Origin: Yuukianura sp. NJ FZ-2021
Taxonomy: Eukaryota
NCBI GenBank assembly: GCA_046563655.1
Contig: CM102288.1
Span: 4,278,001 to 4,342,000 of the forward strand
Reading direction: 5' to 3'
DNA: 64,000 nt
Positions within the stretch are counted from its first letter, which is position 1. Each line of letters starts with the position of its first letter. Positions 10,837 to 64,000 of this stretch are shown piece by piece. Below the pieces are notes generated by a model. The model was not told the origin of the DNA, did not search any database, and saw only the letters and a list, made by a program, of their open reading frames with translations. Made by a program: the position numbers and the translations under genes.

Positions 10837-12983
10837 TTACATGACCTTTGACCTTTCATAGATGTCTCTCTTCCTCCTGAATGCCGATCCATCTCCAGTA
10901 GGATCTTGTAGCCATGGATAATGTCTGGGGCATTCAACACAAGTGAACAACCGCAGTGTCTCTCCCGGTAACTCCCGTGTTGTCAATGGGCATGCATTTG
11001 GAATAGAGCAGTACGGTTGACCTTTGACATCACACTTCTCCTTCCACTCCTGAAAGTCACGCAGGGCCGTCAGTTCAGTTGGATTCTGCATCCACTGGAC
11101 AACTTGCAACATTGTTGTAAAGTAAACGTCACTCCGAGCCAGCATTTCGTCAATGAATTTGCCCAGTTCCTCTCTGAATTCTCGTTTGGACTTGAGCCAA
11201 GAGGCGTGAAAGTGGAGTCCAAGTGGAGCCCGATTGGTGGAAAAGTGGCGATTGAAGTTGTGTCGCAGGAGTCGCCCAAACTGTTCTCCTGTTTGGATGT
11301 TTGAACAAGACGAGACCATGTGACATCCTGGCAAGGACTCGTCAAAAGTCGGATCATCTCGACGATCCAGTTCGTTCATGACCATTTCCCAGACGGGGTG
11401 GGATCGAGATGGACAGTTTTGGGCGTTACCGTGACATTTGTGTGGCATTCGGAAGTAGAGCGTGTAGGGCCAAATCGGAACACGACCGAGTGGAGCAGTG
11501 ATGGATGCATCGTAGACAAAGAACTGATCGGACATCATGTCTGCCGGATACAAAAATTTAAAAATGAAGCAACACAATTTTGAAAAAAAAAAGTTGAAAC
11601 TTTTCGAAGTGAAACATGTTCATTTTTCAGGTTAGAGTTACATAGTAGGTTAAGTGATTCTGATTTACCAAATTGCTTGTTTCCACCAACTCGAAGAAAT
11701 GGCGCGCGAATTCCAACGACGCTTCCATCACTGATGTTTGCAAATCTGCAGAATACGAAAAAAGTAAGATTTTTTGAACTTTCTGTTTTATTCAAAATTT
11801 TGATTTTGTCCAAAATTTTGACCAACCGTTCAATGATGAGTCGATTTCCAGCCATTTCGGCCAACCAATCGTCGTATCTCCCGGCAGTCCAGTATTCCGG
11901 GTCATCTTTGTTCGTAATTGAAAAACTGCCGATTTCATGACCTTGTCGATGCAATTCCTACGATTTGGACAAAAAATGTTAAAGGTCATCAAAGTGTAAT
12001 GTACAGGTCACGAGGTCACAAAGGTCACAGGGTCATACCTGCACTGCTGAGTAGTTGGTGTACTTGTGTGAAGTGAAGAAAGTTCCTTTGATTTGACATC
12101 CGTTGGGATTCTGACGATTTCCATTGAAAATGTCCGAGTAGAGGTCTACATTGTCCACGTTAACGGCTCCATTGAAAGTAATCGTTATCATTTGGGGAAC
12201 CTGTTTTAAAAATGCTTTTTGAAAAATTTTGAAAACTTTGATTTTTAATTTTAAAAGATTACGGTATTCGGTTCAAGGGCTCCTGGAATCCGAGTTCCAT
12301 CGGCAGAGCAGAAACAGTCTGGCAAAACGCACTGTGTTTGGTCACATTCGGGAGCACGATTCGGATCGGTTTCAACCGCTGAAACAAAAATAAATGAATT
12401 TTTGAAGTTTTTCTTGAAAATTGAAATCAAAATTTTGAAAACTTACTGCAAGCATTCTCATCACTTCCATCTTGACAGTCTTTCTTGTCATTGCAAAACA
12501 AGGCTTTATCTAAACATTCTCCGTTTCCGCACTGCAATTTCCCGTCTGGACATACTGGCTCATCAGTCACGAGATTCGGAAGAACTTTTCGAGGTTCTGG
12601 ACAAAAATGTCAAAGGTTACCAAAAATTTTGAAATTTTGGTCAAACGCTTAAGAATTTTGAAAATTTATTTACTTTCTAGCTGGTCACAGTTTTGAACGC
12701 GACCTTTCCAGTCACAAGTTTGTTTGTAAATGTCAAAGGCCAACCCATTTGGACATTTGACCGCTCCGAGGCGAATAGTTCCAGTGAGACCAGCTTGGTC
12801 ACATCGTACGACATCACGACAGTCGCCCTCCGTCGTCAGTCGGAAGTACTCGTCTTCTGGTCGCCCTTTGCACAATTTCTCAATCTGCTGAGTATTCGGA
12901 TTGACTTTATGGTGATCCTGGTCTTGACATGAGGTCAAACCAAGGAAAATGGTCAACAGACAGACCACGCCGAGCTTGCCCAT
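10837..12983 (-). CDS. verm: Group I chitin deacetylase (signal peptide, CBM14, LDLa, deacetylase domain), CDA2/vermiform-like
   Basis: Signal peptide, then the chitin-binding domain CKGRPEDEYFRLTTEGDCRDVVRC...CDWK and an LDLa repeat. Catalytic motifs ITITFNGAVN, GHEIGSFSIT, RAPFLRVGGNKQF, YDASI, NRAPLGLHFHASWL. Confidence 0.9.
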
Positions 12984-26636: not shown

Positions 26637-29600
26637 ATGGATCACCAGTGTTACTTATGGACGACACTTTTGCTTCTCTGTATTTTGTATGTTCAGGTCA
26701 GCAAATCAGCACTTGGAAGCGCTTGTTCCGGAGCTGTGGGCAAGTTCTACTAATATTATGATAAATATAATCATATTATTATATAATAAGTTATAATTGC
26801 TTTCTCAGTTTTATTTTCTGTTATCTTTGACATTTACAAAGAAATAGATAGAATGCCATTTTCGTTTGATTGTCATTTGCAGCTTGTGACGCCGGAATGG
26901 AGTGTGGTAGCAACGGTAAATGCGTCTGCAGCGGTAATACCGTGGAGTATCCTGGATTGACCTGCGGTTTGCCGCAAAGAATTGGTGAAAAATGCGTCCA
27001 AATCCCCTGTGACACTAAAGTGCACCTCGTTTGCAACAGGAAGCAATTGTGTGAATGTGGTAAAGGGTGGACACCTAAAGATTGTACGTCCCTGCCGAGG
27101 TTTGGTGAGAATTGTGATCAAAATACTGGCTGTGACACTTCGTTGAATCTACGGTGCGACCCCGTGTACAAGTCATGTAACTGCGATAAGGTTGGCTTGG
27201 TAGGGTACCAAGGGTATGGCTGTACCCTACCAGCTAAGTACGGCGAGAAGTGTAACCCACCATCCTGCGACCGGCCTTTGTACCTGTTTTGCGACCCGAA
27301 AAACAAACTGTGTATGTGCCTAAATACCAGCTACGTTCCTGGGTATCCCGGCCCCGGTTGTGGTCTTCCGAAGAAACTAGGAGAGGATTGTGCTAATGCA
27401 GTATGCGAGGCCAGCACTACGTGCGACAGTCAGACTAAGAAGTGTGTGTGTAAGCCTGGAGCTGTAGAATATCCCGGAAAAGTCTGCAAGCCAGCACCCA
27501 AGTATGGTGAAGCGTGTGGTCCGCCAGACTGTGAACCAGGCCCGACATGGAACCTTACCTGTACCGGCAATAACTGTATTTGCATAAGCGCCGATTTGGT
27601 TCCACATCCTGGAAAATTCTGTGGAGCTCCACAACAGTTTGGGCAAGAATGCGGTGCCATCGTGTGCGACGACACCAAGAACCTAAACTGTGTCAACAAG
27701 CGATGTGCCTGTGCACTTCCATATGTAGAACACCCTGGAAAGAAATGCGGCATGCCAGCCAAGTACGCTGAGCCATGCGACCTTCCAGTTTGTGAATCAA
27801 CGTCGAACTTCATCTGTAATGCTACTACCAAACTGTGTAGTTGTGCTCCCGGTTTTGTCTGGCGTCCCGGAGATATTTGTGGTGCACCAATGAAACTACG
27901 GGAAGATTGTAGTCAAATTGAATGTGGCCCAAACCTGGAATGTGCTCCTACCAGTGCTAACCTCACGCTCTGTCGTTGTGCTCCTGGGACTGTTGAGCTG
28001 AAAGGAGCCGTTTGTGGACCGCCACCGAAGTTGGGAGAGCCATGCTCACCACCGCCGAATTGTGAATCAGGAGGGATGTTAACCTGTAACACCAATACAG
28101 AGAAGTGTGAATGTTTGGATCCAGATGTAAATGCAGAGATTCCAGGAAAAAAGTGTGGTCCAAGGGGACTGCTGGGCGATAAGTGCCCCCTACCGGACTG
28201 CCTACCCTCTGCTAACCTAACCTGTCAGACATACCGGGCAAAGTGTGTATGCGCAAGAGGATTTACCAGACACAACGGGGGACGTTGTGGACCATACGCT
28301 GTATTCGACGAGGTCAGCTGATCATATATCAAATAATTTACACAGTCAATTATTAATTAGCGAGTAATTGTTCACGTTTTTAACGTTTTGCAGGAATGTG
28401 ACCTTCCAGCTTGCAAGCCTAGGGCTAATTTGCAGTGTACTACTGTACCTGGGAACCAAACACCTAAACTCTGCCAATGTGTTGGTACTACCATCAGAGA
28501 TGCCATAGCCAATGACGGTTCCTGCGCACCGCCACCGCCGTCGATATACGGTCAAAGTTGTGACTCTAAGCGTGCCTACTTTTGTAAGACCAACGTCAAC
28601 CTCGTTTGTGACCCCGTAACACTACAATGCGCTTGTGCTGATCGATGGATGTCTGCGAATACAAATGATGGAGGGTGCACAGTTAGACCGGATAGTTACC
28701 TCAACGGTTATTGTGAACTCCAGTCAGGTACTAACTAAAGAGGAAAGATGATGAATAAGATGTAAATTGTGTAAAAAAATGTTGTAATTTGATGATTTCG
28801 GACTTCGGATGTAGATTGCCAGCCTGGAAATAACTTGGCATGCGACACTTCCCAGAAAAAATGTGTCTGTCTACCCTTTCATGAGGAACAGCCAGAAGAT
28901 TTTCCACAAACACCGTACCGATGTCGCCATAGACCGAGTCGCTACGACGAAGGTTGCGACAAAGACTCTGGTAAGTCCCACTTTTCGCGTGTTCTTGAAA
29001 AAAAAAACAAAAAATTAAAAACTGAAATTTTTTCATACACACTTGACAGACTGTCTTCAGGGACACAACATGGTATGTAGCAAATCGGGCCGAAAGGCAT
29101 GTACCTGCAAAGAAGCGTATGACCTGGATAACGGTAAAACACCGTGTGCTCCTAGCAGATTTAATGGAAGAACGTATGGTCAGACATGCGAAGACTCTCC
29201 GCCGGTACGACGTAAGTTGACCTTTGACCTTGACTTGAAACGTCGCAAGGACTTGGCCTGAAAATAACATGTACAATTGATTTTTATAAGGTTGCGTCGT
29301 CGCTCACAACTTGGTATGCGTCAACAATAGGTGTGAATGTCTCGTGGACTACGTCATTGACTCCAGTACACTCAGAGATCCGACGTTGGGTGTGATCACA
29401 TGTAAATTGGGACAAGGAACACAGACTTATAAGGACAAATGCAAACCGGATTCCGTGTCTCCTAGTGACAGTCGGTTTTCGAAAAAAAAAATTGAGCATT
29501 GAAGTTTTTAAAAAACCATTTTTTTTAACCCAAAATGATTGGTTTGTCCAGGATGTGACAGCAGTTTGGGTTTGGATTGTCTAAAAGTAGAAGAAATCTG

Positions 29601-30480: not shown

Positions 30481-32709
30481 ATGGGTGCCAACCTGGCCAC
30501 AATGGACATTGCAAATCGTTCTCCGCCAATCAACGGCCAAAACATTGATCTCAATGAAACAGTTCCGTGCGAAGTAAGTGAAAATCCAATTTTTAAAAAT
30601 TTGCTGGAACTTGAAATCTTATCCAACTTTTTGGCATTTTTTAGATCCTGGCTGAGATCCTTCGATTCGTCGGTTCTCCTGACGACTTGACTCAGTACAG
30701 AGATGTCTGTGCTCTCTGGAGAAACATCATTGATGAAGTAATTGGCGTGGATCTTCATGTTGGCCATCGAGATCGAACTATCTGGGCAGACTATACCGGA
30801 ACAGCATTCCAATCGCCCGAGGCCATGTCACTTGTGGGAGTCAAGAAGTGTTACATTAGCAACATCGATGAATTTAACCCAGACGGTTCACGTCCATGCC
30901 CAACCTGGAAGACTCCGCAGCTTGTCCAGTATCTCTGGATTGACGGCTACATTCGTGCTGCGACTTTCAATTCGATTACGGCACACTTAAGTCATCTCGA
31001 GACGCTGGAACTTCATTTCACTACACTTGCTTCAGCTGGATCGCTGGAAGATTTCAGCTTCAACGAAGGATTGGCTTCTATTCAAAAATTGACTGTTCGA
31101 ATGGCTGGCGTTGAAGAAGCGACAAAATTGGACTCGATCGGCACTGGAATTGGAAATGCAATTGTGCTTTTGACGGTAGCCAACATTCGGAGACTGGCAG
31201 AGCTGTCGCTAAGTTTCCCATTGGTTGAGCGTATGAACAGTGCTCTGACTACGGTCATTACTCATTGTCTCCAGCGACATTCGGCTTCACTTCGGAACTT
31301 CAGTCTCTACTTCACCCGTTATGCTGAGACTTCTAAACATTTGAATGGTAACTTTTCTAATTTGGACTTTTTTTTATGAATTTTATGAATTTTGAAGAAT
31401 TTTCTTCATTTTGCTTTCAGAATTGGCTCTTCCACGATCGCTTCCGCTCGAGCCTGCTGACCTTGGATCTACAAATTTTGGACTGACTTCGGTCAAAATC
31501 TCATGCATACAACTGGATCATCAGCTCATGAAGCCATTTGAAGATTTGATTGTGGATCAGCGTCACCTAGCTGAGTTGTGTTGCTTTACAAAATACTTGC
31601 CACCGGATCTGGCATTTCAACCAATCCGGAACTGCTGCAACACATTGAAGTCTATTCAACTGGCGTTGAAGGCTGGCATTGATTTCCACTCAGGAGATAC
31701 GCCGTACCGTCCAATCAACCTCTCACCGTTCGAGCGGTGTGTCAACTTGGAATTTTTGGAGTTGATTGGGCGAGAGCCAGAGACTTTTCCAGATGACGCT
31801 GAAGTCCCTGACCTGGTTAACACAGCGGCCCTTCCTGCCAGTCTTCGTGTCCTAACGCTGTCGAACTTCTATTTGACTTCTACAGACTGCAGCGAACTTG
31901 TATCAAAGCCGAACTTAAAGATTCTTCGTCTTTACTACGCCGGGACCATGGGTGACCTTGGACTTCCGTTCAGCGGCCTTGTCCAAATTTTATCTCAGAA
32001 GAAACTGGAAAAAATCTATTTGAATTCTTCAGTCAATGTGCCGAGCATCAAAGTCGCAGCAATGTCCGATGATGTAACGCACTCCGTCTCGGCAACCCTG
32101 GCTTCACGTCAATTCCATGTGCCCTATGGCTTTGGCGCTGAGCTGAAGGATGGATTCTACGAAGTGGGTTATTCAGGTGACTTTACTACCCAGCCGCCAA
32201 TGACGGTCGTCCGGGACGTCTTCCTGACGGACGAAGACGTCAGTCCGTACGTCAGTGATGAAGAAGAAGAAGACGATGAAGACGACGACGAGGGTGTTGA
32301 TGGGGTGTCGGACGAGAGTGACGGAAGTGTCTACGAACCGGACTCGGAAGATGAGGAAGAAGATGACGACGATGATGCTGAAGTTTCTGCTGGAGAAAAC
32401 GAATCTGAAGATGATGCTGAAGTTTCTGCTGGAGAAAACGAATCTGAAGATGATGCTGAAGTTTCTGCTGGAGAAAACGAATCTGAAGATGATGCTGAAG
32501 TTTCTGCTGGAGAAAACGAATCTGAAGATGATGCTGAAGTTTCTGCTGGAGAAAACGAATCTGAAGATGATGCTGAAGTTTCTGCTGGAGAAAACGAATC
32601 TGAAGATGATGCTGAAGATGCTGCCGGACAAAACAATTCTGAAGATGATGATTCCGAAGCAGACGATTCTGGACTAGACAACCTTGAGGATGACGAGGAA
32701 GCAATTTAA
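30481..32709 (+). CDS. F-box / LRR-like protein with an acidic tandem-repeat C-terminus
   Basis: F-box ...VPCE|ILAEILRFV...YRDVCALWRNII, Leu-rich repeats (LSHLETLELH, CVNLEFLELIG, LRVLTLSNF) and an Asp/Glu-rich tail. Confidence 0.7.
32371..32617 (+). repeat. Coding 39-bp tandem repeat, 6 copies plus a partial copy (DDAEVSAGENESE)
   Basis: GATGATGCTGAAGTTTCTGCTGGAGAAAACGAATCTGAA repeated head-to-tail with no visible substitutions. Confidence 0.95.
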
Positions 32710-33039
32710 ATCAGTCTCATTCAAATGTAAATCAATCATTTGAAACTTCAAGCCTTAGCTAAGCCAAAAACACAAAAAAGCAATTTTGAAACAATACGTA
32801 AGGAAAAAGTGTGAAAAACTGAACTGATTTTTAAAAAATACAAAAATGTGGTGAAAAGTTGTTTGGTTCTTGGATTTTTTTAAATGTCAATTTTTTATTT
32901 TAAAATTTCAAATAAGTTTTGGCTTTCAGTGACTTTATTGTTTTTAATTAAACTTTAGATTTTATACATTTTTGGTTTCGTTTTTGAAAACTTTGAATTT
33001 GTACACGTTGGAATAATTGACTCCTGAGAAGGTCAAAGG

Positions 33040-34864
33040 TCAAAGGTGATCTTCAGATTCGGGTCCTCCGTATTGACAATTAGTCACCGTCATTCTGGAC
33101 ACCATTGTTTGACTATTCAATTCTCCTCCGGGTACTTTGGATCTACCTAACCATTCAAGAATCAAGGTCAATGGCAGGTCAAAGGTCAAATGGTCAAAGG
33201 TCAACCTTACTTGAGTGGAAAGTGACCCTGGAGGTCATTCCCGCTAAAGTTGCTGGACAAAGTACGGCTCTAAAGGCCTGTCGATACTGTTTGTTCATGA
33301 AGACGTAGATGATGGGGTTGATGCAAGCGGATGCGTAGATGAGTACGTAGCCAACCAGATGCATTACTGCATGAATAAGAAAAAAATAGTCAAAGGTCAA
33401 ATTCTGTTGAGGTCAAAGGTCAAATTTAGTTGAGGTCAAAGGTCACTTACGTGGGTGGTTGACACAGCGATCAGTGACCTTCACAATGGTAATCGGAAGG
33501 TAGCAGACCAAAAAGGAAATGAAAATGACCAAAACCATTTTCGTAATTCGCCACTCATTTCTTCTAGTTTTGACCTCTCGCGGGTCACTTCGTGCCGAAT
33601 GTTGCCTCATCCGATTCTCGGATCTAATAAGTTATAATATATTATTAATAATTTATTATATTTAATATATTAATGGATTTTATCATGAAATTTAGGTTAA
33701 AAAGCTATCATTTTGTTTGGAAAAAAAGCTAGAATATTTCGTAGTCATAAGGAGTACAGACGCCACTTTTGAAATTCCCGCTCAAAATTTAGCGTCCCTT
33801 TTCTTATAGACATGAAACTCTTTAGTATTTTTAAAGCAGATTATTTATGAATATTTAAATATATTTATATAAAATTATATTTACATTATGAATTATACTA
33901 AAATGCTATTTATTAGAGGTCAATGACCTTACTTGTGAACTGTCCAGAAGATCCTTGCATAGCAGAAGATGATAATGACACAAGGGCAGATGAAGGCAAT
34001 GACAAACAGAGAGTGCTTGGAAGTTCGTCCATTTTCATCCGGTACAATCGTACATGTCTGCAACTTGTCATCATACCCAAACTGACCTGAAGGTCAAATT
34101 TGAATTTAATGATTCAGCCGCCAAAAAAATGTTTGACCTCGTGACCTCTTACCCCAAACTCCAGCTAGCGTGGGTACTTGCATAATGAAACTGAAGATCC
34201 AGCAGAAGGCAATCATGGCTCCAATCCAAATTGGCTTGTAAATCCTCGTGTAAACGGAGTTGCTTGTGATCATAACGTACCTTAGAGAGTCAAAGTTTGA
34301 AGTAGTCATTGATAAGAGATATGCTCGTGACCTCGTGACCTTTGACCTCTCCTTACCTATTAATCGTGACCATTGCGATGGACAGAAGAGAGACGCCTAG
34401 ATTTCCATACTGCATGAGAGGATAGACTGAACAGAGGAAAGGGCCATGGACCCAACCGCGGTTGATAAAACGAGAAGCACTGAACGGCAAGACGATCAAA
34501 CAAAACATAAAGTCTGCCACACAGAGACTGAAATCAAAATTTTGAAAAAAGAATCAAAATTTTGAAAATTTAGAATTTTTAGTTGTGTACCTAATTATAA
34601 AGGCAGCAGCGATATTGCGTACTCTTGGACTCCTCATTAGAGCAACAATCGTGAGAGCGTTTCCCAGTAGGCCGATAATCATAATCAGAACTGTCAGCGT
34701 CGCAGTTAGTACTACAGACGCTTGTGAAAAACTGAAAAAAAAATTTTTTAAACTTTTTCAAAAACAGATTTCGAAATTTGAAAAGAAATTCTTCGCTTTT
34801 TACAGTTTTACCTGGCAAGTTCACTGATTTCTCCACTCACATTGTGATTTCCACACTCTTCCAT
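33040..34864 (-). CDS. moody: Rhodopsin-class GPCR, moody/Tre1 family
   Basis: IGLLGNALTIVAL..RNIAAAFIISLCVADFMFC, GVSLLSIAMVTINRY (NRY in place of DRY), FLVCYLPITIVK and CINPIIYVFMNKQYRQAF. Short tail ending EDHL*. Confidence 0.8.
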
Positions 34865-41110: not shown

Positions 41111-43465
41111 TTAGAAACGAGTTTCATATTTGTATGTTTGGGTGGCACCACTTGTGACTGGCTCAGTCGTGGTGGAGTACGAATATGTTCCAGAGCCACC
41201 ACTAGGTGAAGCAGTTCGGAAGGACCCACCAAGGGAACTTCCAAGAGTCCCACCACCACCACCCGATTCTGTTGCTGCAAAAGCTGAGCCACCACCGGAA
41301 GAGGAGTAACTGTAGCCTCCACCCATTCCAGATCCACCTCCAATTCCACCGCTCTGAGTGGAGTAGCTCATGCTACCACCACCTCCACCTCCTCCGAGGC
41401 TAATTCCTCCTCCACCTCCTCCGAGACTCATTCCTCCTCCACCACCACTGCTTTGCTGTGTGTAGCTAATGCTACCTCCACCTCCGCCTCCTCCGAGACT
41501 CATTCCTCCTCCACCTCCTCCTAGACTAATCCCACCACCACCACCACTGCTTTGCTGTGTGTAGCTAATGCTACCACCACCACCTCCAACGCTCATGCCA
41601 GATCCACCACCGCTTTGGTGGGTCGCAAAACTAAGGTCACCGCCTCCTCCTCCTCCTCCTCCAACTGTTTGCATAGTGTAGCTGATGCCACCACCTCCAC
41701 CTCCTCCTGTTGTGTAGTACTCCGGTGTTGTTTCAGTAATCGTTCGCGTGGTTTTTTTGATTTCAAATGTCGGTGTAATCTGCGCCTCCAAAGCCAGTTT
41801 CATGCGTTCCTCATGCTGTTCCAGCATTCGTGCCAATCTGTTAGTGTGACAAATTAATAGTTTTAATCAATTAACTGTTGATTAATAGTTAAGTGTCAAC
41901 TAACTACAATTAATGCATTTGAGTGCTAACTAACTACAATTATTAATGTATGTTTATAAAGTTAGGTAGTTTTAAAAGTCCAGCGCAAGTGCAGAAGGTT
42001 TAGTGTGAGGTTACGTACGAGAGTTTTTGAAACGTTAAAAAATGTTCGATAACAGCTCCAAATTTGTACTCTTTATTTGTCAGACGTTGGTCAGTAAATC
42101 GCTGAAAAGTTGATGAGGTATGAAATTTTTTGAAATTCATAACTGAAAAATTCAAAATTTCAAAAAACGTTTGTAACTTGAACAAATCTGTATTTGGCTA
42201 ACCTCTCTTCTTCGGACTCCAGTAGACTTCTGTATGTTGCAATTTCGTTGTCCAATCCAACCTTGATTTCCATCAGCTGTTGATAGTCTGTCAGAAGCTG
42301 GAAGCGTTCCGCTTGCATGCTACGAATCAGCTCTTCGAGTCTCGTGCGTTCAGCAGCAAACGCTGACTTGTCACCAGCCCATCCAAGTTCCATATCTCTC
42401 AATTGTTCTTCCAAGTGAGACTTCTCGGACGTAAGCAAAGCCAACTTCTTCTCCAAACTTGACAACTTCAGAGTCAGACTTGACATGTCACCACCTTGAC
42501 CTTCCAGGCTGACCCGGAGTCTTGAAATTTCCGACTGAAGTGCCTGTTGTTTCTTGGTGTAAAGTTGTTCCTGTTCTTCCCGGTGACTGTACAGTTGAAG
42601 TTCACAGTCAGCACGGAGTTGGCGAATAGCGTCGGCCAATCGAGCATCGTACTCCAGTTTCAGTTGTCCAGTGACTTGCTGTGTCTCTTCACCCCGACTG
42701 ATCATCAGTTCAGAAAATTGTTGCTGATGAACTTGCATCTTCATCTGAACTTCATCTTCCTTCTGACGGAGTTGATGTTCCAGGTCAACTTTATTGATGG
42801 CCTCAACTTCATACATGTTTTGAACTTCTTCGAATTCCTTCGTGACCTTGGTCAGCCTCTCTTGAAGTTCAGTTTTTTCGCGGGAAAGTTTTTGACGATC
42901 GTCATCCCGACCTTTGATGTCCATCGTGAGGCTGGCAATTCTGGCTTGGAGCGTTTTGATCGTTCGGTTCAAGTTTGCCACTTCGTCCTCCGTCGTTCGA
43001 AGCCTAAAGCATAGAAAAGTGTTTAGAAAATTTTTGAAAACCGATTTGTAAAAAGTTTCAAAATTTTTTACCTCTCAAGAATTGTGTTGTACTCAGTTTG
43101 AAGTTTCTTGAACTGCATCTCGAGTCGGACTTTGTCCTTTTGCGTATCTTGCAACGTTAAACGGAGTGTGCTCGTCTCTTCCTCAAACGTCTTCGTCAGC
43201 TCATTTGTGATCAGCGTCAACTTGACGTTGGCGTCCCGCAACTAAAAAATTCCAAAAAGTTGACAGATCAGATGATTCATCAGAGATTTCAAGAATTGTG
43301 ACGGTTGACCTCTGACCTGAGCTTGCAAAAGTGAATTTTCCTGTTCCAGTTGTCTGTTGCGTGATAGAATTGAAGCGAGTCGGTCGTTGAGCGAAACGAG
43401 TGCATTCTTTTCGTCAATTCGAGAAAGCGAAATGAGACGCGTCGTTGGCGACATTGGGCGTTCAT
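41111..43465 (-). CDS. Lamin-derived intermediate filament protein with a Gly/Ser/Tyr-rich tail (no lamin tail domain, NLS or CaaX)
   Basis: Exons 43465-43317, 43241-43072, 43003-42203 and 41837-41111 splice in frame. Coil 1A: MSPTTRLISLSRIDEKNALVSLNDRLASILSRNRQLEQEN. Coil 2 end: YQQLMEIKVGLDNEIATYRSLLESEEERL. Poly-Gly tail ending YKYETRF*. Confidence 0.9.
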
Positions 43466-44748
43466 CTGTAACCAAGATTTAATAAAATATGTATTACATC
43501 AAATACATTTTATTGTTTAATGTAATGATACAGTAATGTATTTTTATGCATTTCATGTTGTATTCGCAACTTCTACAGTGACTATTCCAAAAATACCTTG
43601 CAGAACTATCCCTTAACTGTTTTAATATTTTAGTTTCTCCTATAGCCAAAACATAAAATTTTTTGAATGGCATAAAAATTGCAAAGTAGGAAATTGGCAA
43701 TTAGCCATTGAGCAAACTGCGTATATGAAAAGGTCCAATTTCAAATTAAAATTGTAAACAGCAATTATTTCGCAAGAAAGAAGAATTCGCGAATTTTGAA
43801 CAGCAAAAAATTCGCGAATTCCCGGTGACCTTTAAACCAGAAACATTTTATGTAAATGTTTTTGCACTCCTCTTACACGCTTCTCCTCTCTTCCTTCATC
43901 TTCATCCTTCAATCTTGTTTTTGCCAAAAACAGACGAAAGTCAACTTTTCTTTGCAATTTTTTCTTCTCAGTTTTGAAAAATCTCTTTCTAAAAACAAGA
44001 ATGAAGATGAGTTTACTATTTATGCCCCATCTTTCTTGTGTAACCAACCGGATCATCAACCACTTAGCCTCTCCAGTGTCCACGGTCACCCTCAGTGTCC
44101 GTAGACATAAACATCTATCTACTGTACTACAATGTATGACAATGGACACCGAATTAATTGAATTCAGTTAGTGTGTCCACCGGTTGACCTTCGTTTTGTT
44201 GTTGTCACGGAACACAACTTTACAACAATTTGGACAACTTGTCCAGGCCAAGTCGTCGCCTAAGGCTAGGCTCGTTGGCCTTGAATTGGCCCAATTATTT
44301 ATCCAATTTTTGCAACTTTGGTTGAATTCAAAGTGGCAGAGTTGAACTTTTATGCAAATGGTTGCAAATGAAAGTGACAATAAAGAATTTGGCAAACTGG
44401 CAAAAATGGGTACTACCCTAATTTCCATAGCGGTTTTTCTTGATTTTTTAAATATAACTTTATCACTTTACATGAGTGTTTTTGAAAATTTTGAAATTGA
44501 ATTTTGATTTTAGACATAAAAACAAACTGGTTTGCTTTTTTTTTTCGCAAATTCCCAAATTTTTCTGAATTCCTGGACCTTGATTTGCAAATGATTCACG
44601 CCAATTGAATCAAAGTAAAAATTGTGTTGCCGAAGTTTTAAAAAATCTTAGGTTAAAAGAGGTTTCTGATGGCTTTTTTTGCTCAACGATGGATTTTTGA
44701 AAACTATTCGTATGTGTTTTTTTTTCAAAATTTTAAAAAGTTCCTCAC

Positions 44749-46555
44749 CTAAGATGGGACTGGAGATGGAGAATTTTGAACTGACGGAAGTGCTGTTTCC
44801 GGTAGTCGAGATGTCGCCGTTGCTAAGTCCGAGTGTTAGGTTAGGGTGAGATTTATTTGGATCGTTCGTAGTGTAGTGAATTTCCCGCGTAATTTGTTGT
44901 GGTTCGTTCGTAGTGTAGTGAGTTTCCCGCGTCATTTGTTGTGGTTCGGTCGTATAGTGAATTTCCCGTGTAATTTGTTGTGGTTCTTGTTGTTGAGACC
45001 GTACTTGATTCTCAATCCATTGATTCAGCTGGCCATCTTGTCTGAGTCTGTTGAGGTCGTCCATGGAAATGTTCAAGCGTTGTCCAGTACTCGTGGTCAG
45101 CAAAACCGGTTGGTTTCCGGTGAAACTGTTGCTGTGCTGAACATTTTTTCCGGTAATCGTTTCAGTGATTTGAATCGGTTGTTGACCGCCAGTCGAAGAG
45201 CTGATGATAGTACCGTGTTGATGTGTCGGTTGGCCACCGCCAGTCGTGTTGATGATTACCGTTTCTTGTGTCTGAGTCGTCGGTTTGCCAATGATAGTCG
45301 TACCGGTGATTACATTGCCCTGAGCCAGCTGAGCACCGGTCAGCTGACCTCCATCAGCTGAACTGATGATTACCGTTTCGTGTCCACTTCCGCCACCCTG
45401 GAGACTGATTTGACCACCACCTCCAGATTGCATTGAGATTTGACCACCTCCAGATTGCATTGAGATTTGACCACCTCCACCTCCTTGTTGAGATGTAGTA
45501 GTAGTGAAGCTTCCAGTACCACCGCTACGCTGAATTCCAATCTGAGAATCAATAGTTGGCATTGTACGACTCGGCTTGACCACTTCACCCGATCCGGAAG
45601 TTGACGAACTAATTGTAATCTGACCTCCAGCTGATCCTGATCTTGGCTGTTCCTGGTTACGAGCGTCCTTGGTTTCGAATGTTAACTGACCCGACGGGTT
45701 TAAGTCCTTGAGGTCACGTGACTTTGTTGTCATGTCTTGTCCACCTTCCTTTCCCTCTGGATGTTCAAGTACTTTTAAATCCTTGAGTTGATGTTGTCGC
45801 TCTGGATGCTCAAGCTCCTTTGGTTCCTTTTGCTCAAGTTCTCGCAGTTTTGTGTCGGGATGCTCAAGGTGTTTGAGATCATGGAGCTCATGGACACGAT
45901 GCAGTCCATCAGGATGTTCGAGTGGTTTCACGTCTTTGAGGTCACGCGGTTTGGGTTCCGGATGGTCCAACTGCCTAAGTTCGTGCGGTTTGTGATCGGG
46001 ATGGTCCAATTCTCGCAATTCGTGCGTTTTGGGCTCAGGATGGTCTAACTGCCGGAGTTCGTGCGTTTTGGGCTCGGGATGTTCCAAATGCCGGAGTTCG
46101 TGCGTTTTGGGCTCTGGATGGTCCAACTTCCGGAGTTCGTGCGTTTTGGGCTCGGGACGGTCCAACTCTTTGAGGTGCGAAGCTTCATGGGCAGTGTGTC
46201 CAGGACGTTCGAGATGTTTCAACTCGTGTTTCGGCGAGTTCGAGCCGAAACCCAAACCGATTTTTGGTGCTCCAATGCCCACACCAACGTGTGGAGAATG
46301 TCGGCCAGCAACACCTGAAACGTCACCCGCTATCTCACCTGCTGCTGCTGCCGTAGCATCTCCTGCCGCCTTTGTATCAACACTGGCGCCTGCACTAAGT
46401 CCACCGGTTCCAACTTCACCTTCTCCTCCACCGACAGCGATTCCACCGGAAATGCCAGTCCCACCAGCAGTGGCTCCAGCGCTAACTTCAAGCCCTGCCT
46501 TCTTCGCTTCTTGCTCTTTCTTCTTTTCCGTCGAACCTCGAAAAATCTTCTTCAT
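44749..46555 (-). CDS. Large low-complexity, repeat-rich exon; probable extended head of the IF protein
   Basis: ~602 uninterrupted codons from the ATG at 46555 (MKKIFRGS...) to a phase-1 donor TTA G|GTGAG at 44749/44748. This phase matches the acceptor of the first rod exon at 43465. Confidence 0.65.
45935..46180 (-). repeat. Coding 39-bp (13-aa) His-rich repeats, KTHELRxLDHPEP
   Basis: About five well-conserved units plus degenerate flanking copies, visible in both DNA (GAGTTCGTGCGTTTTGGGCTC on +) and protein. Confidence 0.9.
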
Positions 46556-47619
46556 CACGACGATCCCCCTTGTAAGGTAAAGTTAAGGTCACCACTGGCG
46601 GGTCAAAGGTCACTGACCTGTAAATAAAGTAATCTTTTAGAAAAGTTCTCATTTTTGTTTAAATTAGGACTTCCATCGTGCTACTCCTCCGAATTCCAAA
46701 GCATCAAAATCTAGCAAAAAGTGTCGAAATTTTGGAGAAAAGAAATAGAAAAAAGTTATTTATTACCGATTTAAGAATTGGAAGATTGAGTTTGGATTTT
46801 TCTTTCGAAAACTTCAGAACACTTCAAATCGCGTCTTCCTTTTAAACGAGAAACTTTTAACACGCCTTTTGCGGAGGTAAGGACTGTGTGGTGACTGATC
46901 CACCTTCGCTCAGCGATTGGCGTGAATTTGTTCCTTGCCTTGGAACTTTATCGTTCAAATTGTATAATGTCTTCGTCAATTCAACTAGTTTTTGGTTGAT
47001 TTGAATTATTAAGGAGTGTTGGTAGGTAAAAGTGAAGGGAATGTGAAGATTCCACTTTTTCACTTAAAAAAGAACGAAAAGTTGTTTGGCTAGTTTTAAT
47101 TTCAGAAAGTAGTTGTGACCAAGCGTGTACCTCTCTACACATGACATATCACTCACTTTTGCCTTCACTTTTTTGGATTTTGTGGACAAGGACGTCAACA
47201 AATGAGGCTTTTTGCAAGTTAGCATTCGTTTTGATCAACAAAAATTTGGATGCACACGCTACAGGCTTTGAGTAATTCCACTTGTTCTTCTGTGAATTCT
47301 TAATTTTCTGCAAGGATTTGTCTTTAAATCACAATGAATTTTACACACCTATATCTAATGACTGCCTGATTTATTCTATTCTTCTGTGTTGTTTAATTTA
47401 TTCCTACTGTTCCACATTCCTTGGAGTGTCACTCATCATTTTAAGGCCGCCATACTTTCCAGTTTGGTTTAACTCAAACTTGCAAATATTGGCACAGAAT
47501 TTCAAAAAAGAGAAAAAAATAAGAGAGAAAAATAAAAATAAGCAAACTTGCAAATTTTAGCACAGAATTCCAAAAAAGAGAGAGTAAAAAAATATAGTTT
47601 TGAGAAAAATCAAAGCCAA

Positions 47620-54952: not shown

Positions 54953-57900
54953 TCATTCGTCCAAAATCGTCGTCGTAGTTTTCTGAGTTTCAGGATGTTC
55001 TGGAGCGACATTGTCGTCATCAGTGGGAGTACTTTGTTGCTCAATGTCGTCATCGAACGGCGACATTTCTTCATCTGGTTCACGTGCTTCCGGAATATCT
55101 TCTAGAATTGGGGAGAGTGCAGGGTGAAACGGATTGGTCAATTCCCGTCGCGTATCTTTTGCCGTTGCGAATTTGGTAACGAACGGAATCGTTGAGGAGA
55201 TGAGGGAAGAGGCGACGAGAAACATTCCAGCCAACATGAAGGGAACGTCGTAAGACTGGAATGTGTCATACAGAAATCCTACAAAGGACAACCAAAAACG
55301 TTTTTCAAAAACAACTTTTTCAATTTTTCAAAATTTTGAAAACTTCTCTTTCTCTCAGTTCTTATGCTCTAAAGACACATTTATTATGACGCCTAAACCC
55401 AAGTAACAAGGAATGGAAACAGAAAGGTAGAAAAAACCGAAAAACGAAACGAAAACCCCGGAAAAGCCTGAATTCAAAAATTCATAACTGGTATATGTGA
55501 TGCCCTGGAAGACTTTGCTTGACTTGGAGAATTTTTTCATAATTTCATGAAAGTTTTTCATAATTTCATGTTTATTTATAGGATTAGAACAAAATCTGTA
55601 GTTACCTGCGAATGGACTACCGATGATTGACGCAAATCCTCTGAAGAACATGAGGAGTCCAAAAGCGTTGGTCAAGTTGTCGAGTCCAAGGAGGTCAACT
55701 AGTGTGATCGAAGTAAGGGCAATGAACCCTGACAGAAACAGGCCAAACAAGACGTAGATGACGATGAGGGACACATACGTTGGACACCACGGAACGAGTC
55801 CAACCACCACTCCCATGCCCAACAAACAAATATTGTTCAAATACAAAGAGTTAATCAGCTTCAGGTCACTCAGCATCCCGAATCCAACACGACCTACGGT
55901 ATTCATCGCTCCAATGATAGAAATCAACAGAGCAGCATCATCTCGAGGGATATCCTAAAACAGTTTAAAACAGTTTTCAAATTTTGAAATTTTTGAAATT
56001 TTTAAAATTTGAATCTTACTTTTTCAGCACAGAAGTCAATAATGTAAACAAAAGGCACGTAGAATCCAAGCATTCCGACTACTCCGCTGAGTGCAATACA
56101 AAGGAACACAGGGTTGCGCAGAAGCGTAAAATCCATAAACGACTGAAGTGATTTGACTGTAGCTGCGAGACGTCTAGTGAAGGTGGGGCAAAAGGTGGGT
56201 TTGGTCCCACCGAAGTCTTTCTGCACAGAACCGACCGTATGTAGACTCAGAATGCTTTGGCGGTAGTTGAGTGGATTCTGAGTGTATTCGGGTAGATGGG
56301 TGATTGACCCAGAATAGAAAATGTCTTTTCGAGACAAAGGGCGAATGATCCGGTGAACTGAGCCGGATGACCCTGAAATTGACCCGGGCCTCCATTTTAG
56401 ACTAGGATGAATTGACGGCAAATCGGATTTCATTTGAAGAGGTTCATCTATGGACTCTGCAATTGAAAAACTCTCGCGTCGGGATCCGATAGGTGACGGC
56501 TCAGAGTTTCTTTTGGAAAAAAACCTAAAAAGAAGTCAAAAGAGGTCAAAGGTCACATTTTAGTAAATGAAAAGTTCAAATTCATGCAAGGTTAACCTGG
56601 CACTGATGATTGACCCGGGAACGGCCTTGAATGAAAATCTCCTTTGGTCGTGGGAACTTCGCTGTTCGTCGTCGTTCAGGCAATGGTCGTCGTGCATCGG
56701 GTCATGTGATGACCCCTTGGGGTAATGTGGTGACTCAAGGTCGATTTCCTTTGACCCCAAAGTTTTTCTGGAGTTATGAAGGTTAGGGTCGTGACTACTG
56801 CTTCTAGACACCGGGCTATTTAGCACAAAAATTGCATAAGAGGTCATTGACCTTTGTGGGAGTCACGTTGACCTTTGCGTTTAAAGGTCACTTACATATT
56901 GATTCCCCTTGGGTGAATCTCTATAGACGAACTGCTTCTGCCAATTCCTTCGTCCAGTTTTTCGAGGTCTGTTGACCCCTCTGACCCCGAGCTTTGTTTC
57001 TGTTCCGTCTCTGTAATGGTCGAAAGCGGAGGGTGGATGGGGGTGAGTGGGGGAAGCGGAGTGTGTGACCCCGTGAACTGAAACTGGTCCAAATGAAATG
57101 TGGAATGGACTCCAGGGTCAATGTTCAAAGGAAGCTTTTGGCGTCGTTCCATCGTTCCATCCGGCAGTTGCACCATGAAATACTCCGATCCACTTATGGA
57201 ATTCTTTTCAAAATGCTGTTTCCGCTCTTCTGCCATGCGGTAAAGGAGGGGTCGTCGTTTGGGGTCAAGGTCAACCAGGCCTTCGTCATCTGCAAAGTCA
57301 TCCAACGCTTCGCGCTTGATTTCCAGTGGACGAATCAGAGCTCCGCAGCACTTGAGGAAAAAATTGAACGTTTTTCAAAATACGATATGAGTTTAGTAGG
57401 TCACTAATTCACATAGTCACTCCTCAATGTATTTTCAAATTTAAAATTTGTTTGAAAAAAAAAATAAGAATTTTCAATTTTGAGTTTTTTTTAACTCACC
57501 CCACAGATAAATAGGAGTCCAGCATAAATCAGGTTCACTGTGCGCCAACTCATTCGACCGGAAAGCCATGATGCCATTGGTGCAAACGAAGTAGCACCAA
57601 ATCCAGAACCGCAAACGGCAATTCCAGTGGCCAGTGCTCGTCTTTTTTCAAAATAGTAGCCAACAGACACGATGTTTGGAAGGTAAATGAAACCAAAACC
57701 GATTGCTAATTTCAAAAAAATATTTCGTTTTTGAAATTTTTTGAAAATTTGATTTTTCGAAATACTTGACCTTCATGACCTTACCACCGAGAACTCCATA
57801 AGACAGAAGCATCAGTGTCAAACTGTCAGCAAACGACGACAGGATGAACCCTATGCAAGCCACCGCACTGCCCACCATACACACCGTCCGACATCCAAAT

Positions 57901-58644
57901 TTGTTTGTACACGCTCCAACTATTATTTATATACAAATTAATATATTATTTTAATTAATTATTTTTATTATTCTTACCTATAGGTCCAATACACAGTGAG
58001 CCACCACATAACAAACTGCCGGCCCAAGCCACTTGACCTTTGCCAGCATCAAAGGACTCTGCCATTTGCGGCAGGAAAACGCCAAAAGTACATGTGATTC
58101 CGTCCAGCACCAAGTTGCACACGAAAGAAGCAAACACGATGACCCACCCGTAGCCACCATCCGGTGGCACAGGAGCCCCACCATGAATCATTTCATTCAA
58201 AATTGCCTCCTCTTCTTCCTTATCTTCAGATTGCTGACCTCCAAATGTATCTAGAATACTCTTGAAAGAGGCTTTGGAGGTCATGGAACGCAGAGATTGA
58301 CCTGACCTGTTCCCCATCACACTTGCCTTGGAGGTCATTGACCTTATGGACCTATTTAACCTTGTTTCTGACGGGGTCATGGGTTCACTCTCTCCTTCTG
58401 GAACGTACACAGGGACATGATGACTGTTTTCCATGCTAGTGTCGTGCTAGAAACAGGAAAACATGAGTCAAGAATATTTCAAATTGCTTTTCTTAAAAAT
58501 TTTTCAAAATTTTGGATTCATTGTTTTCAATTTTAGAATTTAAAATGAGTTTAATTTTACCCAATCACTTGTTTCTGGTCCGTTTGGAACAGAAATGTCA
58601 TCAGGTACACTTGAATTTGAAACTGACAGATCCTTTTCACCCAT
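54953..58644 (-). CDS. Monocarboxylate transporter (SLC16/MCT family, MFS)
   Basis: PPDGGYGWVIVFASF, YFEKRRALATGIAVCGSG, a long cytoplasmic loop with RPLSRKDIFYSGS, NTVGRV, LLGLDNLTNAFG and GSPFAG. Probable first coding exon 58644-58561. Confidence 0.93.
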
Positions 58645-59774: not shown

Positions 59775-61320
59775 TTAGATGTTATGGTGGTTACTTTTCA
59801 GTTCCCGAATCGGGTTTTTGGCAACGCCGGTTCCTTTGCGTACTTTCACTTTTTTGACTTTGTTAACAAAGTAGTGACGAACTTCGTCTCTCAATTGGAT
59901 AGTGTAAGGTTCACCAGTTAAAACCTCCCATGGATTTCCAGTTAGCTTGAGATGTTCCAGCCGAGGCACACCAGCAACCAAGGAACAAAATCCGTCAAAG
60001 TCTGGATACATCGTTCGACCATCATCGGGAAAACCGCTCAGAAAGAGGCTAAGTTTCGTTACATTTGGAAACAGTAAGTTTGCTCCATTTGACGCAATGT
60101 TTCTGCAACTGGTTAACCGAAGTTGGCGCAAACCATGGAAAGTGGTCGTCGGCAACAATGGAATGTCGTCGTAGTGAGCGCGGTTTTCAAAAAACTTGAG
60201 CTTATACAGAGGCAAAGTTTGAATACAATTCCAAATTGCAGTTTTGAGTGGCGTGTCAAGTTCAATCGGAAGTGAAATTGCAAGAGCGACAATTCTGGGT
60301 TGTGGATCCAAGGCTTCGAGTCGATTCCAAACATTTTGAAACGTATTGGTGACAATTCCGAGCCGAAGTTTGACTTTTGTAGAACGTGAGCGCAGAAGGC
60401 TTAGAAAATCTGGAAGTCTTTGCAACTCTTTTGTTCGCATTGTGTCCTCGGCATAGTTCCCATTCCTGCGGTGTCTAAGGAACTCTGGCATTCCAGCATG
60501 TTCGTAGGCGACTTCGCAGAAGTAAGGATAGTAAAGTAGCGACAGGACTTGTAGACGCGGAGAATACTGGATAACTTTTTCAAAAAATGTGGGCTGGTCG
60601 GCTGGAACTGTCCGGCGACCAAAAGGAAAATGTTCAACGAGTGCAAATTTGACCTTGAACTTTTTCAAATTCCGAAAAGCTTGAGCGTAGGTTGCAGCAT
60701 CGCCGTCAGGGAATTGTACTCCGCAGTGTCCGTAGTAAGCGACGAGTGACAGAGATGTCAAATTCGTAATGGTCATAAGCAGCCGGTGGACTGATTTAAC
60801 ATAGCGACGTTCTTCCCAAAATTCATTTGTCATCTCCCATGTCAAAGGTTCATAAATCTCATCCCGCGATATGTTGAACTGGAACGACAGTCCTGTGCGA
60901 TCCACTGAGCTGTTCATGAACTTCTTAATATCGATTGGAGCAATGTCTTGGTCAACATGGAACGTAAATTTGGAAAACGGAATTCTGTTTCCAGGAGTAG
61001 TGCGCATGAGCCATTCAAAGAAGTTGATGTCGGTGACTCTCCGGAAATGAATGGACTTGTGACGTGTTCGAAGGCTCTGCTGGGTAGCTGGATCGTCTCT
61101 CCAACTGCGACAAACGAGACGACAATTCGGAAGGTCGCTGACCGGAACGAACGAAAGTATTTCAGCGAAAACCTACAAAAAACAAAATGGATGTAAAAAA
61201 AAAAGAAGCGGGTAAATTCATTTTCATAAGGCCAAGACTCACTTCTTCTGGAAGGTCCTGAATAGAAAGTGTGTCCTCTGTTGTAATTTCCTCATCTTCC
61301 ATGTTGCCTTGTTCATCCAT
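59775..61320 (-). CDS. F-box / LRR-like protein
   Basis: MDEQG...SIQDLPEE|VFAEILSFVPVSDLPNCRLVCRSWRD is a clear F-box. It continues in frame into the 410-aa ORF with Leu-rich repeats (NLTSLSL, RLQVLSL, GLRQLRLTSC, RLEHLKL). Confidence 0.85.
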
Positions 61321-62043: not shown

Positions 62044-64000
62044 ATGGGTGGGTCATTCTCGACTAAAAAATCGGCTGGAAGTGACGACCGGCAGAAGATT
62101 CGGGCGCATGAGCAAGAAATGGCTAAAGACAATGAAGCTAACGAAGCGATTCTGGATGGTAAGCCTTTTTTAAACAACAATTTTCAAAATGTATGCAGCG
62201 ATGACCAATTTTTAGCGACAATTGGCTTTCAGGTGACCCAAGAAGAGACGTCCATTGGTATCACTGGGTCATTTTTGACATGCGCTTCAGAATTGTTTAT
62301 GCGACACTACTGGCAATGGCCATTGGAGTCGGAGTTACTCTACTGCTCTACCTTTACGTATTTAGTGGAAATGGAAATCAAAAATTTGGAAGTTGTCTGC
62401 TCAATTCAGAATTCAGGTCAAAGTTCAATTTATAAACATGTAGAATTTTCACACAAAACTGGTTTGACCTTGAAAAAATTGAAAATGTTATAAAAAATTG
62501 AATTTCAGGTTTGAGTGTATGATAAATTCAAATCGTCGCGACATCTCTGAAAAAGAGTGTTTCGAAGCCTTCGGTTGTTACACTGACGACGACACTTTAC
62601 CATTCAAATGTCACCATTCATTTCCTCCAGGCTACCAGTACGAAGTTACACAAATCCAGGAATCCTCCGGCGACACTTCAGAAACAAACACAATTGATGT
62701 CACACTTACCGTTGCACCACGACATCCCACCAACATGTTACAACTGTCAGTGAATTTTGATTGGACAGAAGACGGATACTTGGAAATGGAACTTTTCGAT
62801 GCTGCTCGGCGGAAATCAGTTGAACCAACCACGAAAGCTCTAAACGACAACGACCATTTTGTAGTTTCTTTTCCTCCAGAATCCGAATTTTTCTATATTC
62901 ACATTCAGCGTAAAGATACACTCGAGACAATCTTTGATACACGCATGGGCCCTGTCATCATTGACGAAACTTCGCTCAGTTTCTCAACAACTTTGGCCAC
63001 CGAATTCTTCTGGGGCCTGAAAGGTGGACAGCGGGAATTAACGACTCACGTTGTTCTAAACGGTCCAGGAAGTAGCGAACTTCCGTTCTACATGGCTCTG
63101 GAGCAAAGTGGACAATTTCATGGTGTCTTAATTGAAACTTTGGCGCCTTTTATTTTCCAGTACATCGAAGCTCCAGCGATGCTTTTTCACTTTCAGCATG
63201 AAGCGTCAGTCAAGCTACGCTTCTTTCCAGGCCCCACCCCGCAGGACGTTTTTACTCAAGTTCAAAAATACGTAAGAACAATTTTTCTGGAAAAGAATTT
63301 TCCTCAAGTTTAAAAATTTTCTAGCAACAGTTCATATTTTGGTGCGTCTTATACGTGACTGCGTATTATACGCCGTGAAATCGGGTAATTTGAATAAAAC
63401 TTCGTGTTTTAACTCAATGTCTTGTTTTGTTTGTTTAGAAAGAAAAAGTTGCTGGAATTCCAGCGCCAGTACCGAAAGTGCTGCCGCCGTATTGGGCTCT
63501 TGGACTCCACCTTTGCCGGAAAGGTTACGATGCTGGTCAAGCTCTCGCAGAACTAAAAGGACTTGCAGCAGAAGGAAACGACGAGAAGCGGAAACAGATT
63601 CCATATGACTCCGACTGTATTGAAGAAACGCTAAGGAAGCCTTTTGTAATTGACGATTCGACATTCCCTTCGACAGGATCCGGATTTTCTAGTATCTTGG
63701 ATCACATTGTAACCAATGGCCAAAAAATTTTACTGAGTCAGACGATGCCTTTGGACGCTGATCCTCAACCGCCAACGTCAGTTCCACTTATACTGGACGC
63801 AACCGGGGCAGCAGCATTCGTTGGACTTCAGGCTCCGCGGGATGGAAATCTGAGCGAAGGCATTGAAATCGTTTTCCCAGACTACTTAAACAGTCAAATC
63901 CAAGCTTGGGCTGATGCTGAGCTGAGTTCGGGTCTTTCCGGAGGATTTCGGCCGGATGTGAGACACTTGATGACAGGACTCGTGTTGGTTGACAATTTTC
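62044..64000 (+). CDS. Type II membrane GH31 alpha-glucosidase-like protein (5' part; runs off the window)
   Basis: Short cytoplasmic N-terminus, TM helix (IVYATLLAMAIGVGVTLLLYLYVF), Cys-rich trefoil-like segment, then PFYMALEQSGQFHGVLI, FFPGPTPQDV, PPYWALGLHLCR and VFPDYLN, as in the GAA/MGAM subfamily. Confidence 0.85.

Follow-up and report, generated by a model that had tools for sequence, protein, structure and literature searches.

We examined a 64,000-nt window of the genome of Yuukianura sp. NJ FZ-2021 (GenBank assembly GCA_046563655.1, contig CM102288.1, positions 4,278,001 to 4,342,000) that contains a predicted gene for an intermediate filament (IF) protein. Coordinates below are positions in this window, and the IF gene is read on the minus strand. 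Three exons encode the rod of the predicted protein and a fourth, glycine-rich one encodes its tail. Upstream of the rod exons, on the same strand, lies a long open reading frame (ORF) that the original prediction had proposed as a giant head domain spliced onto the rod. Judged from the sequence, we consider it likely that this ORF and the rod belong to one gene with a long spliced head-rod product.

The head ORF starts with an ATG at 46555, which has a G at position -3. An in-frame stop lies upstream at 46585-46583, and the frame is open from 46582 to a stop at 44650-44648. The length first reported, 636 aa, was off by one: the ORF has 635 codons from the ATG, and 644 from stop to stop. In DNA of ~42% GC, an open frame of 644 codons is in itself unlikely. 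From the ATG at 46555 to 44750, 602 residues are translated without a stop. The exon then ends in the donor AGT CCC ATC TTA G/GTGAGG (a slash marks the exon border), with 44749 as its final base, and rod exon 1 opens at base 43465 after the acceptor ttggttacag/AT GAA CGC CCA ATG TCG. Both sites are in phase 1, and the predicted junction reads SPIL-D-ERPMSPTTRL. Donor, acceptor and junction had all been named in the original prediction and were borne out on the minus-strand reading. Exon borders beyond this first junction were set by reading the three frames together with their splice contexts. When the five exons were joined by coordinates, the coding sequence was 3654 nt long, in frame and closed by one terminal stop. 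It predicts a product of 1217 aa (130.5 kDa), close to the roughly 1,200 aa originally estimated, with a head of 620 aa (counted up to EKNALV), a rod of 356 aa and a tail of 241 aa. No paralogues of the head, rod or tail were found inside the window.

The rod belongs to the IF family by several comparisons. Rod exon 3 matches the Pfam Filament family (PF00038) over model positions 53-313 with 105.7 bits against a 40-bit cut-off (E = 4.8e-30), and rod exon 1 matches model positions 1-32 (E = 4.3e-6). The best PDB match of rod exon 1 is the lamin A region PLSPT..RITRLQEKEDLQELNDRLA (E = 3e-4), with which the junction of head and coil 1A aligns as P(L/M)SPT...R(I)..(L/I)(Q/D)EK..L..LNDRLA; rod exon 3 matches vimentin, keratins and lamins in the same database. 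The helix-initiation (LNDRLA...) and helix-termination (EIATYRxLLExEE) motifs are present as EKNALVSLNDRLASILSRNRQLEQEN and LDNEIATYRSLLESEEER, and these align with lamin A and vimentin at the same motifs. Coil 1A is intact by both the Pfam and the PDB alignments. From EKNALV to SEEER the rod measures 356 aa, which is lamin-length (~350-356 aa) as judged from length and not from a heptad alignment, and which therefore implies a long coil 1B with 42 extra residues. A search with the rod among proteins of 498-2000 aa gave a single match, a keratin at 27% identity, and the ESM Atlas returned generic Filament clusters only.

The tail is 34.9% Gly and 15.4% Ser and contains repeats of 27 and 99 nt; in composition it presumably resembles keratin tails. 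No Pfam family, and so no lamin tail (Ig-fold) domain, was detected in the tail ORF at E <= 0.1. By reading, the sequence after the rod has no basic cluster that would form a nuclear localization signal (NLS), only ...EIKKTTRT..., and the C-terminus ...TQTYKYETRF has no CaaX box. We suggest that the protein is a cytoplasmic-type lamin-like IF and not a nuclear lamin. Its features would place the gene with the lamin-like cytoplasmic IFs reported from collembolans and copepods (PMC4829535).

The head consists, in order, of a Gly/Ala-rich sequence, 13-aa HELR/PEPKT repeats, Gly/Ser/Thr/Gln-rich GGGQISMQ repeats and 14-aa ITREIHYTT repeats, and no Pfam family was found in it. Its AlphaFold2 model, a single-sequence prediction and as such weak evidence, has a mean pLDDT (predicted local distance difference test score) of 39.7, with 515 of the 602 residues below 50. 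The sole confident stretch, at residues ~481-522, contains helices at 498-506 and 510-522 with pLDDT values of 61-81. It coincides with a block of the head that is conserved in a second species (Table 1), so that a short, conserved helical motif precedes the rod by ~100 residues. The head is predicted to be intrinsically disordered, apart from this one conserved helix pair.

Conservation of the predicted head-rod junction in a second species

A scan of metagenome contigs with the rod yielded one locus, on a contig of 3495 nt (L001), with a rod 69% identical to that in the window. Rod exon 1 is 86% identical between the two, with proportions of nonsynonymous (pN) and synonymous (pS) differences of 0.12 and 0.72. 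Rod exon 2 is also 170 nt long in L001 (2167-2336) and is 66% identical (pN 0.23, pS 0.59), rod exon 3 is 69% identical, and the start of the tail is conserved at L001 3350-3493. The L001 species is distant, with synonymous sites saturated (pS 0.59-0.72), and because of this saturation unconstrained sequence should not align between the two. The introns of the window and L001 do not align: a global alignment was uninformative and only short k-mers are shared. Exact look-up of five L001 ORF translations found only the 269-aa rod ORF in the collection, in a cluster of 1, and no transcript-derived full-length relative.

Linkage in a relative, which the original prediction had named as a check, is kept in L001, where the rod is preceded, on its own strand, by a head-type ORF. 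This ORF (3-411), open at its 5' end, has a Gly/Ser-rich part followed by RINASMNDVSGLRDDGQLAQWIENDVK...STFNSKFSMSSPLLA. Its last residues are ...SKFSMSSPLLA, and the exon border reads GCG G/GTAAGC, a phase-1 donor. The counterpart intron is 1444 nt long, compared with 1283 nt in the window, and leads to the phase-1 rod acceptor ttttag/AT GAC AAC CGC CCC ATG. The junctions would thus read ...SSPLLA-D-DNRPMSPTT in L001 and ...SSPIL-D-ERPMSPTT in the window, with GAT (Asp) as the junction codon in both.

Conservation of the head could be followed over its last 136 codons, the part visible in L001. Besides the BLASTP match given in Table 1, the conserved block was also seen by tblastx, and by blastn at 75% identity over 65 nt. 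The last head residues before the donor, ...SKFS(I/M)SSP(I/L)L, are likewise conserved by tblastx. Over 90 aligned C-terminal head codons pN is 0.43 and pS 0.67, for a dN/dS of ~0.4. Past the donor the read-through frames diverge (GEELFKIL... and GKLDILCS...) and stop after 34 and 22 codons. In-frame indels flank the junction, with an extra Ala codon before the L001 donor and DN in place of E after the acceptor. In rod exon 1, the codons for R-P that precede the Met are conserved in the two species, with a synonymous change. Conservation of the C-terminal part of the ORF and of its phase-1 donor in a second species shows that the observation is more than chance. That conservation stops at the donor, that the frame is kept and that the phases match in two species is the pattern which translation across the junction would be expected to leave. 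The layout in L001 also argues for the original proposal, in which the coding sequence of the IF gene opens with the head exon, spliced from 44749 to 43465.

Rod exon 1 itself would make a poor first coding exon, since its own ATG leaves a head of 14 residues. Its first bases form an out-of-frame ATG in both species (43463-43465 on the minus strand of the window; L001 1856-1858), which arises because the split Asp codon G/AT is followed by GA. This ATG would hamper translation of a head-less mRNA from the MSPTT start.

Several observations weigh against a head-rod fusion. The join from 44749 to 43465 was read from genomic sequence and not from transcripts (a search of sequencing runs found one metatranscriptome, with 0.15 of the sampled words), and the N-terminal 460 residues of the head lie outside the L001 comparison. 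No homologues of the head were found among proteins of 1055-3010 aa, and with them no related head-rod fusion in the databases. A HMMER (phmmer) search with the head against 1.84 billion representatives gave six matches at E <= 1e-3, all on the HELR/PEPKT repeat. Isomin, the one arthropod cytoplasmic IF characterized at the protein level in the literature consulted, is reported to have a head just 13 residues long (PMC3065449). The MSPTT Met is conserved and the intron holds a conserved 12-mer beside a TATA-like box; some tissues could therefore mainly make a head-less isoform, transcribed from an internal promoter. Finally, the similarity of head and tail is not significant (BLASTP E = 1.8), and their likeness is compositional only. 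The original prediction had taken a shared glycine-rich style of head and tail as support for a single gene. The motifs it pointed to are present (GGGQISMQSGGGQISMQSGGGGQISLQGGG in the head, GGGGGISLGGGGGGMSLGGG in the tail) and the compositions are alike, but the 27-nt Gly repeats of the two differ in their Ser codons, and the argument from style is weaker than first proposed.

Other candidate relationships of the head were tried and set aside. The six HMMER matches were rejected as homologues on inspection, as they are unrelated repeat proteins matched by chance, none of them an IF. A search of the ESM Atlas with the head gave no usable match. Head and tail were also considered as a duplicated sequence, which was rejected on the BLASTP result and because the repeat units differ in DNA.

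The locus could instead hold two separate neighbouring genes, one for an independent disordered protein of ~635 aa that ends or splices within the intron, and the other for an IF of only 611 aa. Two genes would fit the lack of IF-related homologues of the head, its non-significant likeness to the tail and the genomic origin of the predicted junction, and an AATAAA at ~43514-43509 falls within the interval. However, conservation halts exactly at the donor, and the read-through tails beyond it are unconserved and unequal in length. The phases are compatible in both species despite the indels flanking the junction, and tblastx of the intron between the window and L001 revealed no conserved coding segment that could act as an alternative terminal exon. 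The order of the genes and their strand are the same in both species even at saturated divergence, and conservation extends to the codons that precede the IF Met. Weighing both sides, we regard two genes as improbable. Much the same conservation bears on whether the upstream ORF is a functional coding exon at all, as opposed to an open frame made by tandem repeats or an assembly artefact. Three tandem-repeat arrays do lie inside it, and the opposite strand has long ORFs too (194 aa at 45996-46580 and 173 aa at 44840-45361). The arrays, however, cover only ~430 of its 1807 nt, its non-repetitive C-terminal part is conserved as protein in L001 at the dN/dS given above, and the window contains no N, which together make a non-coding or artefactual ORF very unlikely. 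For annotation, a single gene with a spliced head and rod means that gene models of this locus should connect the 1.8-kb exon with the rod exons, and that two separate genes should not be annotated.

Intronic elements, repeated motifs and neighbouring genes

The introns of the window and L001 have two 12-mers in common, against 0.4 expected. One of these, TCCGGTTGGTTA, has a single exact copy in the window and lies 576 nt upstream of the rod-exon acceptor there and 577 nt upstream of it in L001. We consider it a candidate enhancer or internal-promoter element. A TATA-like sequence and a candidate non-coding leader exon follow it in the window (Table 1). An isoform starting from MSPTT (ATG 43454-43452) would be 611 aa long (65.6 kDa) with a 14-residue head. 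The locus might then have two promoters, as at C. elegans ifc-2, one giving the head-bearing mRNA and the other, within the intron, the 611-aa isoform. Such an arrangement would add to the head-rod fusion and does not exclude it.

Evidence on this short isoform is divided. The MSPTT Met is conserved in both species, and the element GATGNTCCGGTTGGTTA has stayed at nearly the same distance from the acceptor (576 and 577 nt) despite saturation at neutral sites. Downstream of it in the window come the TATA-like CATAAATAG and then the donor-like CGT/GTAAGA. There is precedent at ifc-2, whose short isoforms IFC-2d and IFC-2e come from an internal promoter. For IFC-2d, an IF-only protein of 622 aa extended by 14 aa at its N-terminus, the promoter is reported to lie in intron 10, ahead of the IF part (PMC7035338). 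Isomin is another precedent, as it is reported to form filaments in vitro with its 13-residue head (PMC3065449). On the other side, L001 has no donor at the matching position, and the leader exon, if it is used, has two ATGs that start an upstream ORF of 10 codons, whose end lies beyond the junction. In both species the out-of-frame ATG at the start of rod exon 1 precedes the MSPTT ATG, which itself has a C at -3, and the conserved element fits an intronic enhancer equally well. We hold the two-promoter arrangement to be possible, though somewhat less than probable.

A different 12-mer, TGACCTTTGACC, occurs at 28 sites in the window against 0.05 expected, with unrelated flanks and often in tandem. 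It lies on the strand of the local gene where this is evident, except for a copy at 10842, and a YAG follows within 30 nt downstream in 18 of 24 clusters, compared with 47% of random positions. Some short introns appear to consist mostly of it (gtaagTGACCTTTGACC...TTGACCTTTGACC...cag near 33445-33380), and in L001 a copy at 1829-1840 lies 15 nt before the rod-exon acceptor. The motif contains CTGAC and TTGAC. It looks like a lineage-specific intron 3'-end motif resembling an extended branch site, or an introner-like short repeat. The copy upstream of the head exon probably marks the 3' end of an intron in the 5' untranslated region. The reverse complement, AGGTCAAAGGTCA, is a DR1 nuclear-receptor site; a role as a gene-specific DR1 or HNF4-type site was set aside, with 28 copies dispersed in the window.

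Table 1. Features of the predicted IF gene and related elements in the 64,000-nt window.
Feature	Position	Strand	Details
Head exon	44749..46555	-	ATG, 602 codons + 1 base; donor GTGAGG, phase 1; low-complexity head, predicted to be largely disordered
Intron, head exon to rod exon 1	43466..44748	-	1283 nt; donor GTGAGG, acceptor ttggttacAG
Rod exon 1	43317..43465	-	donor CAG/GTCAGA; last 17 head residues (D)ERPMSPTTRLISLSRID, then start of coil 1A EKNALVSLNDRLA
Rod exon 2	43072..43241	-	170 nt; phase-0 acceptor, phase-2 donor AG/GTAAAA
Rod exon 3	42203..43003	-	801 nt; donor AG/GTTAGC; rest of coil 1B and coil 2, through EIATYRSLLESEEE
Tail exon	41111..41837	-	includes stop codon 41113-41111; no donor
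39-nt (13-aa) tandem repeats HELRxLDHPEPKT	45946..46167	-	5.7 copies, Tandem Repeats Finder
27-nt (9-aa) Gly-rich tandem repeats GGGQISMQS	45407..45479	-	2.4 copies, Tandem Repeats Finder
42-nt (14-aa) tandem repeats EPQQITREIHYTTN	44851..44986	-	3.3 copies, Tandem Repeats Finder
Conserved head block, residues 493-532, RLNISMDDLNRLRQDGQLNQWIENQVR	44960..45079	-	BLASTP against L001, 21/40 identical, E = 1e-11
Conserved intronic 12-mer TCCGGTTGGTTA	44041..44052	-	L001 1267-1278; 17/18 as GATGNTCCGGTTGGTTA
TATA-like CATAAATAG	44024-44016	-	~20 nt downstream of the conserved 12-mer, in the window
Candidate non-coding leader exon	~43989-43877	-	ends in donor-like CGT/GTAAGA; by sequence reading only
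TGACCTTTGACC, example sites	4869-4880, 5898-5909, 7568-7579, 8753-8778, 33031-33445, 46601-46612, 56544-56555		one site reads ...TTTGCCC
TGACCTTTGACC upstream of head exon	46601..46612	-	followed by cgccAG and, 35 nt on, ttacaAG/GGGGATCGTCGTGATG

Judged from the genes that neighbour the IF gene, the window is arthropod genome with short introns. A chitin-deacetylase-1-like gene lies at 10837-11957 on the minus strand; its ORF (10840-11544) is 81-88% identical to insect (CDA1 87%), Daphnia, copepod and ostracod proteins, and 95% identical to a JGI protein. The plus strand carries an EXS-family (XPR1-like) gene at 7795-9543 and a GH31 glucosidase gene at 62483-63999, and the minus strand a HEAT-repeat gene at 22351-22788, which we take to be raptor-like, and a gene for an MFS (major facilitator superfamily) transporter at 55355-58446. 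A 483-aa open frame at 26870-28321 on the plus strand has ~ten Cys-rich repeats (C-x-C...PG..CG.P...GE.C) and no Pfam match at E <= 1e-3, and possibly encodes a secreted repeat protein of an undescribed family. Two further long ORFs consist of a single exon. The minus-strand one (59775-61172) encodes an F-box (PF00646, E = 1.8e-6), and the plus-strand one (31396-32709) matches no Pfam family and closes with a highly acidic tandem repeat, (DDAEVSAGENESE)n.

Comparison with known intermediate filament proteins

The original prediction had contrasted so large a head with lamin heads of a few tens of residues. The predicted head is ~20 times longer than lamin heads, but a precedent exists in C. 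elegans, where IFC-2a (1128 aa) and IFC-2b (1248 aa) are reported to have a non-IF N-terminal half followed by a complete IF moiety (PMC7035338); the use of ifc-2 isoforms in the excretory canal is described in PMC6605810. The IFC-2a/b (EXC-2) proteins and the predicted protein are alike in architecture and size, with 1217 aa and a 620-aa head predicted here, together with the possible 611-aa isoform with its 14-residue head. The IFC-1 and IFC-2 tails, as described in PMC3065449, are without a lamin-homology domain, as is the tail here. The two systems differ in that no similarity of head sequence was detected (the HMMER search with the head gave repeat noise only, and the presence of IFC-2 in the library was unchecked). 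They also differ in that the nematode N-terminal half is reported to come from exons 1-10, whereas a single 1.8-kb exon would supply it here, and in that an internal promoter is reported for the nematode gene and only candidate elements are seen here (PMC7035338). Because arthropod IFs are reported to be lamin-derived and not members of the bilaterian cytoplasmic IF clade (PMC4829535), the likeness to IFC-2 would be convergent.

Arthropods were long thought to lack cytoplasmic IFs, the reported exceptions being isomin and lamin derivatives of collembolans and copepods (PMC3065449, PMC4829535). Of these, isomin is the one characterized as a protein, and it is small and its end domains are very short. 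The predicted protein resembles these in coming from an arthropod and in having no NLS, CaaX box or lamin tail domain. Isomin, from the collembolan Isotomurus, is described as a protein of ~40 kDa with a degenerate coil 1A after its 13-residue head and then a Gly/Ser stretch, and with a Gly/Ser-rich tail (20.4% Gly, 18.5% Ser) that is without a lamin-homology domain (PMC3065449). The tail here is Gly/Ser-rich as well (34.9% and 15.4%), a comparison made with isomin's description, but coil 1A is intact, the tail is 241 aa long and the predicted head 620 aa. Nuclear lamins share the rod length of 356 aa, and it is with lamin A that the junction of head and coil 1A aligns best; they differ from the predicted protein in their lamin tail domain, NLS cluster and CaaX box and in their far shorter heads.

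The rod is of lamin length and not of the shorter vertebrate type, which sets the predicted protein apart from vertebrate keratins and other cytoplasmic IFs. Among the latter, the keratins K1 and K10 carry glycine-rich repeats on either side of the rod, in both of their end domains, and keratin heads are shorter than 200 aa. In nestin, synemin and NF-H a single end domain is disordered, very long and extends away from the filament, and this long domain is the tail, not the head. To our knowledge, a head of ~620 aa would be among the longest IF heads known. Narrow searches of the literature did not turn up a long-headed IF from an arthropod.

The best-supported model is one minus-strand gene whose five coding exons would give a cytoplasmic-type lamin-like IF of 1217 aa. 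The exon at 46555-44749 would supply nearly all of the 620-aa head and be joined to base 43465 by a phase-1 splice over the 1283-nt intron. The 356-aa rod would form the coiled-coil core of the filament, from which the long head and the glycine-rich tail may project as flexible side-arms. Such side-arms could keep filaments apart, cross-link them or tether them to an apical or junctional structure. By analogy with isomin and IFC-2, the protein might be expected in the apical web of an epithelium or of the midgut. Phospho-regulation at a lamin-type site beside coil 1A is part of lamin biology, and the P-M-S-P-T-T site found here may keep such regulated assembly. The analysis shows the exon structure, the reading frames, the conservation and the predicted disorder; splicing, filament formation and side-arm function are what we infer from these features.

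Taken further, the locus might represent a convergent version of the ifc-2/exc-2 design on a lamin-derived rod, with a disordered ~620-aa head in a giant exon, an intronic promoter and a head-less isoform, in which an N-terminal side-arm and a glycine-rich tail organize an epithelial apical web. We offer this combined picture as speculation, and in its entirety it is rather unlikely.

If the head-rod fusion is real, an arthropod IF of ~130 kDa would extend the known variety of end domains among lamin-derived IFs, and the IFC-2/EXC-2 architecture would have a second representative, apparently arisen by convergence. IF assembly normally requires the head, and this protein would let the effect of a very large one on assembly be studied in a naturally occurring case.

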